From a virus (lineage: Duplodnaviria; Caudoviricetes), in IMG/VR virus record IMGVR_UViG_3300032305_001732, positions 1 through 64,000 of that record: a DNA stretch of 64,000 nucleotides, one strand, 5' to 3'. This document shows, piece after piece, positions 1,468 through 38,651 of the stretch. A program made the translations under genes and the position numbers. Within the stretch, counting starts at the first letter, position 1. Every line of letters starts with the position of its first letter. The notes beneath the pieces were generated by a model, which was not told the DNA's origin, searched no databases, and was given only the letters and a program-made list of their open reading frames with translations.

Positions 1468-1539
1468 GGGGGCGAAGCATTGTTAGTGATGCACGAAACT
1501 TTTAATTTTGTGAATCCGGCGCAACTCCGGACGCCTCTA
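1468..1539 (+). tRNA. Atypical tRNA-like cloverleaf: anticodon TTT (Lys), Ala-type acceptor (G3.U70, A73), T-loop CGCAACT
   Basis: GGGGGCG/CGCCTCT acceptor; GCAT/ATGC D-stem; CGAAA/TTTTG anticodon stem with loop CTTTTAA; TCCGG/CCGGA T-stem; no encoded CCA. Confidence 0.75.
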
Positions 1540-1613
1540 CTGTTGTAATGTCGTGTGCTGCTGTGTATATTGACCGCTGGATTACTAACCCAGTAGTGTC
1601 AAGGATGACAAAT

Positions 1614-2033
1614 ATGCACAGCAAAATAAAAGGAAATATTGGACAGTTTGCGACAAGCTTGGCATTGGCGCAGTTAGGTTTTTCAGTTTTCAGCGAAGAA
1701 GGCGATATCTCAAAAATTGATCTCGTTGCTGAAAAAGCTGGAAAGCTTTTACGGTTTCAGTGTAAAGCCGTTACGCCTGTCGCAGGTAGCCTTCGGTTAC
1801 CGCTCAAAAAAAGCGGGCCGGGCTACAAGTTTGCCTACAAACCCGATATGTTCGATTATTTCGCCGTATGCGATCTTTCTGACGGCGCAGTCTACGTTAT
1901 CGAGGCGGGCGTGTTAGCAGATGTGACAAATACGCTAACATTGCGCAAAGAACGCGCTAAAAACAATCAGACAAAACATGTGCGCATTGCCGCCGATTAC
2001 GAAATAAGCAAAGTGCTTAAAGCTCGGCGGTGA
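1614..2033 (+). CDS. Free-standing PD-(D/E)XK homing-type endonuclease (I-Ssp6803I / PDDEXK_5-like)
   Basis: KGNIGQ...LGFSVF...KIDLV...RFQCK catalytic pattern; FDYFAVCD; located among tRNA genes; start could be 1605. Confidence 0.75.
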   Translation: MHSKIKGNIGQFATSLALAQLGFSVFSEEGDISKIDLVAEKAGKLLRFQCKAVTPVAGSLRLPLKKSGPGYKFAYKPDMFDYFAVCDLSDGAVYVIEAGVLADVTNTLTLRKERAKNNQTKHVRIAADYEISKVLKARR

Positions 2034-3978: not shown

Positions 3979-4079
3979 CCGCGCATGGTGTAATGGTAAG
4001 CACACGAGATTTATATTCTCGGCCCGTAAGGGTACAGGCTGATTACCTGTAGGTCGGGGTTCGAATCCCTGTGCGCGGA
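3979..4079 (+). tRNA. Atypical tRNA-Ile with two anticodon-like arms (TAT and GAT)
   Basis: CCGCGCA/TGCGCGG acceptor, GTGT/GCAC D-stem, CGAGA-TTTATAT-TCTCG, CCC-GTAA-GGG, ACAGG-CTGATTA-CCTGT, CGGGG-TTCGAAT-CCCTG, A73. Confidence 0.85.
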
Positions 4080-5491: not shown

Positions 5492-5565
5492 AACTCGGTA
5501 GCCCAATTGGCAGAGGCGGTAGACTTAGGATCTACTTGTTGCGGGTTCGACTCCCGCCCGGGTTA
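5492..5565 (+). tRNA. tRNA-Leu(TAG), short variable loop
   Basis: AACTCGG/CCGGGTT acceptor, GTAGA-CTTAGGA-TCTAC, GCGGG-TTCGACT-CCCGC. Confidence 0.95.
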
Positions 5566-5598
5566 TTATGTCCGATACCTAAAGCAATAGGAGATAAT

Positions 5599-6048
5599 TT
5601 GCCGGAATACGAGACGGTCATTGCAGACGAGACGGCGCACCAAATAGAGTTGCGCCGTCTCGTTCTCGTTTATAACCCAAACTGCTCTACGCATTATCCC
5701 GAGCGGTTAATGATTACTCCAGAAATGACGCTAAAGTATTTTGGCGAATTAATTGAAATTGGGCCCTATACGCAGGAGCTATTCCTTCAAGTTGTAAAGG
5801 ATGATTTTCGTCAGCCAGTTACGCTTGAGAATATGCGCAAGGCCCACATCGGTTTTCAGCACCTCACGGGGTTGCTCGAGCTGTCTTTTAACTACACATG
5901 CCAGCAGTTCAAGTTCGGCTGGAAATACCCTGAGACATATCTCCATCCGAGGTACCAGGGCAACCTCGCCGACATCGCGCTGCTGCTTTCTGACCTACCT
6001 AAACTGCGCGAATTTATTCTGCGCGTTAAGAAAGAAAAGGGAATATGA
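5599..6048 (+). CDS. Hypothetical protein
   Basis: AGGAG RBS before TTG 5599; overlaps next start (ATGA). Confidence 0.7.
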   Translation: MPEYETVIADETAHQIELRRLVLVYNPNCSTHYPERLMITPEMTLKYFGELIEIGPYTQELFLQVVKDDFRQPVTLENMRKAHIGFQHLTGLLELSFNYTCQQFKFGWKYPETYLHPRYQGNLADIALLLSDLPKLREFILRVKKEKGI

Positions 6049-25273: not shown

Positions 25274-25840
25274 ATGTTCGTATCTGACGTCCAGGTATTG
25301 CGCCGGTTTACCAAGAAGCTCGCTTCGGTTGAGATGAAGGATCCGGCGGCTATGTCGGCGGCCGAGCGCACCGAATTCAACAAAACCATGACGAAGCAGC
25401 AACCGCCCGATCTTACTGATAAGGTAAACATGGGCGCGCGCGCTGCCGGTTCTGCTGTATCCGGCGCCGCTAATAAGGGACTTGAGGGCATTACTGGCGC
25501 AGCTAAGTCGCTGTACAACAATGCCACGCCTACAAACCTTGGTTTGGCTGCAGCTGGCGCGGGATTAGGCGGCGGGGCCCTTTACGGCCTTTCGCGCTTG
25601 CTGCAGTCCGATGAAGAAAAGAAGAAGAAAACGCCCATCATGGCTCCGGCTCTTGGGGCTGTAGGCGGCGCGGCCTTGTTGCCGATCATTGCGGCTCTGA
25701 TGTCTCGCGGTGAGGCGAAGCCGATTAACATGGACGGCTTTAATACTTCAAACGGTCCAGCAAATTATGCCGATGCTGTAGCCCACGCGAGCGGCCCGGC
25801 GATGGTTGGCACACCGACCACGTCGACTTATCCTAAGTAA
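25274..25840 (+). CDS. Putative virion protein with glycine zippers
   Basis: KKLAS motif; GLAAAGAGLGGGALYGL and ALGAVGGAALL segments; GGAG RBS. Confidence 0.7.
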   Translation: MFVSDVQVLRRFTKKLASVEMKDPAAMSAAERTEFNKTMTKQQPPDLTDKVNMGARAAGSAVSGAANKGLEGITGAAKSLYNNATPTNLGLAAAGAGLGGGALYGLSRLLQSDEEKKKKTPIMAPALGAVGGAALLPIIAALMSRGEAKPINMDGFNTSNGPANYADAVAHASGPAMVGTPTTSTYPK

Positions 25841-37253: not shown

Positions 37254-38651
37254 ATGGACGGATTGTCTGTTTTATACCAGTCGACGCATTCGGCGCCGTT
37301 GTACAACATCGGTAACGCGTATGGCTGGCTAGCTAAATCGTCTAAAACAGCTAGCGCTGAATACCATCTATCCGGCCGGCTTTATTTAGCTAAAAGCGGC
37401 TGGCTTCTTTTATCTGTGCCAAATGCTCTCGTCCGTGGCGTATTTGACGCTATGTCACATGCCGGCGCTGAGCTGCCGCTTGCTGGCACTATGAATGTGC
37501 CCAACGTAGATAAAGAGCTTTTAAACGCGCATATCTCGGTTATGACGGCCGATGACGTAGAAGCTATTGGCGCTAACAAGATCAACGAGCGTGGGCATTC
37601 TTTTAAGTACGCGTTAGGCCACGTCAAAGAGCTTACGCCCGGCAACATTGACGGGGTTAGCAAAATTTGGGCTATTCAGATCGCGAGCCCAGAGCTGTCG
37701 GCCTTGCGCAAAAGCTATGGGTTGTCTGCGTTGCCTAAAGACGAGCCATTCCACATTACTGTAGCTGTGCGCCGTAAGAACGTGCTGCGCGAGAACGACG
37801 TTAGCAAGTTTGATACAGCTTCTGGCCGCGGGGAGCTAAAAGCGGCCGCAGACGCCGAAACTACGTATGAGTGCAATTGCGCTGGCCACTGCACCTGCCC
37901 GCCTAACTGCGTGTGCAAGAAATCCTGCTGCAAACCATCTAAAACAGCCGCCGACCTTATTCCTGGCGGCGCGGCGGACAACGTACCCGACAGTAAGTTC
38001 CCTAAAAAAGATTTAGCTTTAGGAGTCAAAGATGAGCGAGAACATACAAGCAATGATCAAATCGCCAAAGAAATTGCCAAAGATCATTTGCAAGAAGACC
38101 CCTCCTACTACGAAAAAGAAAAGCTGAAATCTGTAGGCAAAACACCGCAAATTATCTTACAACTACGTGCTGCAAAAGAGCATTCAGATAACAAGCGGTA
38201 TGACCAGAAAAACCACATTTTGCGGCAATTAATATCAGCCGCTCCGCAGGATTGGGTTGTCGATGATCCGAAACCTTACCATATGGGCATCACCCACGCC
38301 CCGACTAAATTTAAATTTCACGCTGATCCGAAGATAATTCCGCCTGTTGTGCCGGTAAGCAAAGCCGCGTCGAATAACCCGTATATTGCGCAACTATTTG
38401 CTACCCCGCCTAGTATGACTCCCGGCAATACTACTTGGCAGAATGTTGTGCAGCATTTGCGCAATGTTAAGACACGCGGAGATCGTCAGGCGTTTGCAGA
38501 ACAGAACACGCAAGGTTTATTGGCAGAACTCGACCCTGAATACAAGAAGAAATTGCACGCGCAGATTGCCAGCAAGAATTATCCGCGGCCCGATTTTTTA
38601 ACTAGGATGATTCAACAACACGGAGACAGCGCGTTGAACGCTGTGTCGTGA
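37254..38651 (+). CDS. Polyprotein-like: 2H phosphoesterase + Cys-rich peptide + DUF5661-like + further modules
   Basis: AHISV (37530) and FHITV (37752) 2H motifs; CNCAGHCTCPPNCVCKKSCC; PGGAADN...EHT...AKEIAKDHL.EDP.YY; K-x-A at 37344, 37839, 37941, 38361. Confidence 0.75.
   Translation: MDGLSVLYQSTHSAPLYNIGNAYGWLAKSSKTASAEYHLSGRLYLAKSGWLLLSVPNALVRGVFDAMSHAGAELPLAGTMNVPNVDKELLNAHISVMTADDVEAIGANKINERGHSFKYALGHVKELTPGNIDGVSKIWAIQIASPELSALRKSYGLSALPKDEPFHITVAVRRKNVLRENDVSKFDTASGRGELKAAADAETTYECNCAGHCTCPPNCVCKKSCCKPSKTAADLIPGGAADNVPDSKFPKKDLALGVKDEREHTSNDQIAKEIAKDHLQEDPSYYEKEKLKSVGKTPQIILQLRAAKEHSDNKRYDQKNHILRQLISAAPQDWVVDDPKPYHMGITHAPTKFKFHADPKIIPPVVPVSKAASNNPYIAQLFATPPSMTPGNTTWQNVVQHLRNVKTRGDRQAFAEQNTQGLLAELDPEYKKKLHAQIASKNYPRPDFLTRMIQQHGDSALNAVS

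Follow-up and report, generated by a model that had tools for sequence, protein, structure and literature searches.

A gene for tRNA-Lys(UUU) with an unusual core is located at positions 1468-1539 on the plus strand of the window, by which we mean the whole 64,000-nucleotide stretch of phage DNA analysed here. The window makes up the initial 64 kb of an IMG/VR record of 76.6 kb, the completeness of which was estimated at about 37%. The GC content of the phage is 51.8%, and its genes include a multisubunit-RNA-polymerase fragment as well as those for an SNF2 helicase, PhoH, Volactin, and a 2H-SAK phosphoesterase. The tRNA gene spans tRNA positions 1 to 73 and was assigned from its sequence, the ARAGORN call, covariation among homologues, and a family covariance model (R1). 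ARAGORN reported a tRNA-Lys(ttt) at 1468-1540, and Rfam did not report 1468-1540 either at the gathering cut-off (29 bits) or at E ≤ 10. The RNA forms a 7/4/5/5 cloverleaf with a 7-nt anticodon loop and U33. The same cloverleaf is the minimum-free-energy fold of the single sequence, with a modest z-score of −1.98. Inspection of the sequence revealed no encoded CCA.

The 5′ strand of the acceptor stem, GGGGGCG (1468-1474, plus strand), is paired with CGCCUCU (1532-1538) through G1·U72, G2-C71, G3·U70 (1470/1536), G4-C69, G5-C68, C6-G67, and G7-C66, and is completed by A73 at 1539. The segment 1475-1493 (+), delimited with the use of the sequence and the family census, consists of A8 and A9 (1475-1476), the D arm GCAU / UGUUAGUG / AUGC, and A26; the D-loop has no GG and thus no G18G19. 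The anticodon arm CGAAA / CUUUUAA / UUUUG occupies 1494-1510 (+), with the anticodon UUU at 1501-1503 and a G28·U42 pair (U42 at 1509). It is followed at 1511-1531 (+), as defined by the sequence and the census, by a 4-nt variable loop, UGAA, and the T arm UCCGG / CGCAACU / CCGGA. There are three G·U pairs in the molecule, and its anticodon stem is AU-rich. The core bases are A8, U14, A18, G19, C54, G55, C56, and A58, so that the window RNA agrees with the canonical set U8/A14/G18/G19/U54/U55/C56/A58 at G19 and C56 and, as a feature of this copy, at A58, but nowhere else. The elements listed in the original prediction, i.e., four paired stems with a CUUUUAA loop, a GGGGGCG/CGCCUCU acceptor with G3·U70 and A73, the T-loop CGCAACU, A8, and a D-loop without GG, are all present in the sequence.

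Downstream of the tRNA, a gene for a PD-(D/E)XK endonuclease (PF11645, PDDEXK_5; Pfam E = 8.3e-13) extends over 1614-2033 (+), with a probable ATG start at 1614. This gene also adjoins the tRNA in three of the four closest relatives (loci L002, L003, and L062) and is 5′-truncated in the fourth (L061). A sigma-70-like promoter match at 1543-1571 (+), TTGTAA and TATATT with a 17-nt spacing, probably serves the nuclease gene; the match is weak, as one was found and 1.2 are expected by chance. A TGTGTATATT block in the promoter region is conserved in L002. The leader of the nuclease gene (1577-1610, +) was delineated from the sequence and from an alignment with L002, L003, and L062 that was read by eye. 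It contains a hairpin CUGG / AUUACUAAC / CCAG at 1577-1593 and a small hairpin UGUCA / AGGA / UGACA at 1597-1610, in which the Shine-Dalgarno sequence AGGA (1602-1605) lies in the loop. Both stems change and stay paired in L002, L003, and L062, as judged by eye and not by statistics. Through these leader hairpins, the translation of a homing-type endonuclease may be controlled. Endonuclease genes also adjoin tRNA clusters in the case of T4 SegB and the Anabaena array (PMC8421152). A search of five Verrucomicrobiales genomes with the window protein as a query did not recover the PDDEXK_5 nuclease; its association with the tRNA is limited to the phage clade. The upstream segment 1273-1466 has no detectable homology in L002, L003, L061, and L062, and the tRNA itself is 97% conserved; because it is unconserved in these four closest relatives, the segment was dropped as a part of the tRNA element. 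Separately, 15 records of Stenotrophomonas phages have a stretch annotated as 'tRNA-Pro' that 2275-2335 matches at 87%. In the window, this segment is part of open reading frames, and it gave no tRNA call with ARAGORN or Rfam.

Two related phage contigs with the same RNA were reached via the neighbouring nuclease gene. Searches with degenerate DNA patterns then yielded 8 and subsequently 27 viral-contig stretches, together with three metagenome contigs. An exact 29-mer from the window had no match in viral contigs. In total, at least 32 distinct homologues were found in uncultured phage contigs; many large phages have this body. BLASTN of the window copy and the copy at locus L011 against 50,697 GenBank phage records gave no usable match; the sole match, to Curtobacterium phage Yappy, was weak and partial, and a wider flank matched ordinary tRNA genes only. 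In an alignment of nine sequences, 98.9% of cells were paired, and 11 of the 21 pairs had changes on both sides. None of 500 shuffles reached these values, and six slid registers were also far below them. This data indicates that the fold of the window RNA is more than a product of chance. The claim that 1468-1539 encodes a structured, non-canonical RNA of the tRNA-Lys(UUU) type was thus borne out by the cloverleaf, the ARAGORN call, and the covariation of homologues.

The covariance model R1 separated about 34 family members (57-98 bits) from ordinary tRNAs (at most 46 bits). The score of 89 bits for the window tRNA is circular, since this tRNA was in the training seed; members found later, independently of the seed, scored 57-93 bits and 54-78 bits. 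With the Rfam tRNA model, the homologues in the phage records G001, G002, G003, and G005 scored 37-42 bits. Two more odd tRNA-like genes were observed in these phages, at 109487-109557 of G003 (L021) and at 25582-25653 of G002 (L023). In one of them, a CAU anticodon is combined with the A8-A9-GCAU body known from the Lys family, and the other has the anticodon loop GGAUCCG and the T-loop UUAAAGU.

Across the 32 distinct sequences, the stems change freely with pairing kept, and about 25 unpaired positions are invariant or nearly so. The invariant ones include A8, A9, U14, A18, G19, U20, G21, A26, A46, A48, G55, C56, A73, and the whole anticodon loop C32-A38 (CUUUUAA, 32/32). In the phage-set census, G45 and A57 were each found in 31/32 sequences, and positions 54 and 58 vary. 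The family therefore retains the cloverleaf, the CUUUUAA loop, and A73, and its core is rewired: U8/A14 is replaced by A8/U14 and G18/U55 by A18/G55, G19 and C56 are kept, and the variable loop is NGAA. It differs from canonical tRNA-Lys in the D-loop, the anticodon stem, and the core. The window copy carries the full rewired-core set (A8, A9, U14, A18, G19, U20, G21, A26, CUUUUAA, NGAA, and A73), its T-loop fits the family form N-G-C-A-N-N-N, and all 21 pairs and every family-invariant base are intact.

In G001, G002, and G003, phage records that are complete or nearly so (200, 224, and 148 kb), the family RNA is the only tRNA-Lys found by Rfam and ARAGORN; the Rfam hits that ARAGORN missed in these records have other anticodons. 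The phage copies sit in clusters of ordinary tRNAs, mostly with U34 anticodons. Two further features of the window can be recorded here. The tRNA at 3979-4079 (+), whose anticodon is UAU (Ile AUA), has an insert of about 30 nt in the variable region, apparently forming two hairpins; it scored 55 bits with the Rfam tRNA model and was not called by ARAGORN. Long 'Ile-tat' tRNAs (77-91 nt) recur in tRNA arrays of Verrucomicrobiales (L031 2737-2827 and L078 10558-10648) and at the phage loci L004, L008, and L011. At 5514-5623 (+), a weak match to YrlA, a Y RNA-like family, was found (31 bits with a cut-off of 69; E = 0.0012). It overlaps a tRNA-Leu(UAG) gene and may simply reflect a tRNA-like module.

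Cellular copies were sought with a strict pattern across 185,579 species, each represented by a single genome. Seven assemblies were recovered, all of them Verrucomicrobiales/Verrucomicrobiota. R1 matched 47 of 151 sampled Verrucomicrobiales genomes, about 44 of which (~29%) hold clear members, defined by a score of at least 54 bits and a length of 72-73 nt; complete chromosomes are among them. A phylum-wide sample added few members, and only those in G006, G171, and G249 look true. Most phylum-level matches (74 nt, ~50 bits) were judged to be canonical tRNA-Lys and were not counted. The chromosomal copies lie in dense, long accessory tRNA arrays (L-arrays) and usually encode CCA. The carriers also hold a canonical tRNA-Lys(UUU) elsewhere, and one Verrucomicrobiales genome has this body twice, once with UUU and once with CUU, at a distance of 1.7 kb. 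In three of five Verrucomicrobiales genomes, a Ro60/TROVE gene was found 1-3.5 kb from the rewired tRNA-Lys at the end of the array (G124:C1 at 6.368 Mb, G136:C1 at 2.088 Mb, and G006:C37 at 84-85 kb). Through this neighbourhood, genes of RNA quality control are linked to the spare arrays. Searches of five phage records, that of the window and four related ones, detected neither Ro60/TROVE nor RtcB.

The A18/G55 elbow is not specific to Lys, as it is present in most array tRNAs, for all amino acids seen. Parsing of the array tRNAs gave 58 with G55 and no GG in the D-loop (typically A-G), 16 with U55 and GG, and one mixed. On this distribution, G18/U55 and A18/G55 represent alternative, co-varying elbow states. 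The A8/U14 swap is an extra of the Lys body; other array tRNAs have U8 and A14. An AT-rich tRNA-Arg(UCU) with a canonical elbow was also observed to adjoin the Verrucomicrobiales arrays. In three genomes (L029 508-583, L034 3403-3475, and L035 2726-2801) it has G3·U70 and A73, together with A2-U71 and a mismatched 1:72. It is unusual for G3·U70 to be kept in a non-Ala tRNA.

The window RNA is thus a phage accessory tRNA related to the L-array tRNAs, with a systematically rewired core. Like the cell-side relatives of the family, L-array tRNAs are supernumerary beside the housekeeping set; they spread horizontally, homing-type endonuclease genes adjoin them, and the arrays have been reported in Verrucomicrobia (PMC8421152). 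The window copy differs in being a single gene in a phage tRNA region, outside any array. The tRNAs of the L-array in the trn operon of Anabaena PCC 7120 are aminoacylated in vivo and are found in polysomes (Santamaria-Gomez et al. 2021, PMC8421152), which in our assessment is the closest experimental precedent for the use of such tRNAs in translation. The terms T-loop, G18, U55, and tertiary are absent from the main text of that paper (PMC8421152); accordingly, the A18/G55 elbow and the A8/U14 swap are undescribed there. In a limited literature search, which does not prove novelty, we found neither the A18/G55 elbow nor the present tRNA-Lys body described. Among natural tRNAs, tRNA-Pyl and the type II tRNAs of mitochondria lack G18G19 and the T-psi-C loop and have connectors other than U8, and yet they are active in translation (Krahn et al. 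2020, PMC7609411). In these, the D-loop is shortened, the stems differ in length, or the D/T contacts are missing (PMC7609411), whereas the window family keeps standard arm lengths and G19-C56 and has specific tertiary partners swapped.

We propose that the gene at 1468-1539 is a functional, selection-maintained tRNA-Lys(UUU) that serves as a translating spare, and that its rewired core may let it escape enzymes recognizing canonical tRNA. The probability of this reading as a whole is, in our estimation, roughly 0.6. The transcript would be trimmed and then provided with CCA by the host enzyme. Host LysRS would lysylate it via U34-U35-U36 and A73, and the lysylated tRNA would decode AAA (and AAG) for the phage. 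The altered core would be a poor substrate for host readers of the D-loop, T-loop, and core, such as defence nucleases and modification enzymes, so the phage copy would act as a spare tRNA-Lys once the host tRNA-Lys had been attacked.

The use of this tRNA in translation is probable, judging from its sequence and that of its homologues. The identity set U34, U35, U36, and A73 is present in the window copy and in 32/32 homologues, and bacterial class II LysRS recognizes the anticodon and A73 (PMC9976931). In the phage, 463 AAA and 370 AAG codons were counted, i.e., about 830 Lys codons among 14,088 (~6%); the prevalence of AAA in a phage of 52% GC counts for a translating tRNA-Lys(UUU). As U54/A58, U55, and G18 are normally met by RNase P, the CCA-adding enzyme, EF-Tu, and the ribosome, the translation competence of an elbow lacking them is assumed here.

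Evasion as the selected function of the rewired core is a more tentative proposal, to which we give somewhat less than even odds. Among defence nucleases, tRNA-Lys(UUU) is a preferred target. Without U8, G18, U54, and U55, the usual s4U8, Gm18, m5U54, and psi55 modifications are not possible, and a different surface is shown to proteins that read the canonical core. Counting against evasion, the anticodon loop, which is the usual site of nuclease cleavage, is unchanged in the family. The conflict context was counted for the spare-tRNA reading; it comprises the Ro60/TROVE genes near the array tRNA-Lys and the 2H-SAK phosphoesterase of the phage. The latter domain occurs together with DUF5661 in a protein encoded at 37254-38651 (+) and belongs to a family named for RNA repair, which hints that this phage handles RNA damage. 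The nuclease-insensitive Lys tRNA put forward in the original prediction seems, in this light, a sensible reading.

A phage precedent is tRNA-Lys(UUU) of T5, which is likewise phage-encoded and keeps its decoding identity with changes at nuclease-read positions, including the D-loop (PMC11464382; PMC12409363). The PARIS nuclease AriB reads U16-U17 of the tRNA-Lys D-loop and the anticodon stem and cuts at 40/41, and the T5 tRNA-Lys escapes it (PMC12409363). The T5 molecule has a canonical body with two mutations near the AriB cut site 40/41 and C in place of U16. Its escape has been demonstrated, whereas the whole core of the window family is rewired and the family is known by its sequence differences from canonical tRNA-Lys.

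The known targeting of tRNA-Lys(UUU) by PrrC and PARIS AriB (PMC12409363) also fits a decoy or sponge, i.e., a tRNA-Lys mimic that would bind an anticodon nuclease, LysRS, or another tRNA-Lys factor and would have no role in translation. An invariant anticodon loop on an altered body agrees with such a mimic as well. We consider it unlikely. The family RNA is the sole tRNA-Lys in three complete phages with an otherwise normal decoding set, and the same body also occurs with a CUU anticodon. A73 and perfect acceptor pairing are conserved, as charging would need, and an elbow used by array tRNAs of all amino acids seen fits decoding better than mimicry.

The G3·U70 pair of the window copy raises the question of alanine charging. 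Among the 32 sequences, position 3:70 is G-C in 20, C-G in 7, A-U in 3, U·G in 1, and G·U in 1; the lone G·U is the window copy, and the other 31 phage-set homologues have no G3·U70. Eleven chromosomal copies, inspected by eye, have G-C or C-G. Since L061, L062, L002, and L003 all carry G3-C70, U70 at 1536 (+) is derived, a C-to-U transition private to the window copy. Between the window tRNA and that of L061, its nearest relative, there are just two differences, at C42 and C70 of L061, each in a G-C pair there and in a G·U pair in the window. At least one G·U pair was found in 30/32 family sequences, which makes one at 3:70 unremarkable. Most likely, G3·U70 arose by a recent C70-to-U transition with the pair kept; the change would be neutral or tolerated, and the gene would not exist for its sake. 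The Lys/Ala chimera is owed to a single point change and not to design. Consequently, the alanine-identity acceptor stem cannot be upheld as a built-in feature, which is how it had been presented.

The window and L061 are 97.2% identical in the tRNA; in coding DNA on its flanks the identity drops to 70-78%, and in neighbouring tRNAs to 70-86%. The conservation of the tRNA amid such flanks argues that purifying selection acts on the window copy. The anticodon stem of L002 has two mismatches, a hint that constraint may be relaxed in part of its clade. G3-C70 in homologues had been named beforehand as a sign of simple decay. The homologues do have G3-C70, and the window gene, with 21 pairs and the family invariants kept, does not show decay.

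A tRNA with dual identity would be a substrate of both LysRS and AlaRS, so that AAA/AAG would be read partly as Ala, or AlaRS would be titrated, perhaps to the benefit of the phage. The anticodon is not read by AlaRS, so UUU alone leaves alanylation possible. Four of five bacterial Ala determinants are in place in the window (A73, G2-C71, G3·U70, and G4-C69), and the marks of genuine tRNA-Ala, G20 and an NGC anticodon, are replaced by U20 and UUU (identity table in PMC9976931). Partial Ala charging of the window copy is, from these determinants, chemically possible. Within the arrays, G3·U70 is retained by tRNA-Ala genes that have the rewired elbow (including the two in L076), which suggests that the rule is valid on this chassis, and U70 is at least tolerated in a gene otherwise strongly constrained. 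According to Hoffman et al. (PMC5389508), a single C70U in yeast tRNA-Pro(UGG) creates the AlaRS determinant by the same route and leads to mistranslation. The yeast variant was selected in the laboratory and its mistranslation was shown, and the window case differs in having a strong LysRS anticodon and in being one metagenomic sequence.

We nevertheless regard dual identity as improbable. U70 is private to this copy, the intact UUU anticodon and A73 favour LysRS, G20 is missing, and 1:72 is G·U instead of G-C. Mistranslation at about 830 Lys codons would be costly, and U70, known from a single sequence, is possibly a sequencing or assembly error or a minor variant. If dual identity were true, it would mean a statistical Lys-to-Ala proteome at AAA/AAG or the drawing of AlaRS onto a Lys decoder, and the window tRNA would be the first virus-encoded mistranslating tRNA. 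The G3·U70 copy is a natural test of an acceptor-stem (Ala) against an anticodon (Lys) determinant.

Staphylococcus tRNA-Gly species that feed cell-wall synthesis are also devoid of canonical D- and T-loop bases. By analogy, the RNA could be a Lys-tRNA for a non-ribosomal use, a reading that is very unlikely. The non-canonical elbow could reduce its use by EF-Tu or the ribosome, and the cellular hosts retain a canonical tRNA-Lys too. Opposed to this, no tRNA-dependent transferase was detected among 38 window ORFs scanned, the elbow is common to a near-complete array set beyond Lys, and it is the only tRNA-Lys found in the three complete phages.

A decaying pseudogene or a chance cloverleaf is scarcely credible. 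It would agree with the silence of Rfam, a z-score of only −1.98, the three G·U pairs, the AU-rich anticodon stem, and the damaged anticodon stem of L002, but the intact pairs and invariants, the 97% identity to L061 against 70-78% in the flanks, and the strong covariation contradict it; we regard it as largely refuted by the covariation, the 32-sequence census, and the L061 comparison. A tmRNA-like acceptor mimic, another early suggestion, or an attP remnant of a tRNA gene was refuted: G3·U70 with A73 is the tmRNA acceptor signature as well, but G3·U70 is unconserved, ARAGORN found no tmRNA and Rfam no tmRNA family, and an att remnant would not look like a full cloverleaf that covaries and has an invariant anticodon loop.

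The reading of the gene as a rewired-core tRNA-Lys(UUU) kept as a translating spare bears on how phage tRNAs are understood, since they are now regarded as counter-measures to bacterial tRNA-cutting defences. In the phage tRNA escapes known so far, a small number of bases are substituted, either in the anticodon arm or in the D-loop; here, the tertiary core is rebuilt instead. If the rewired core protects these tRNAs, it would represent a second, structural route of tRNA immune evasion, and it would also provide a naturally orthogonal-looking tRNA chassis for tRNA structural biology and engineering.
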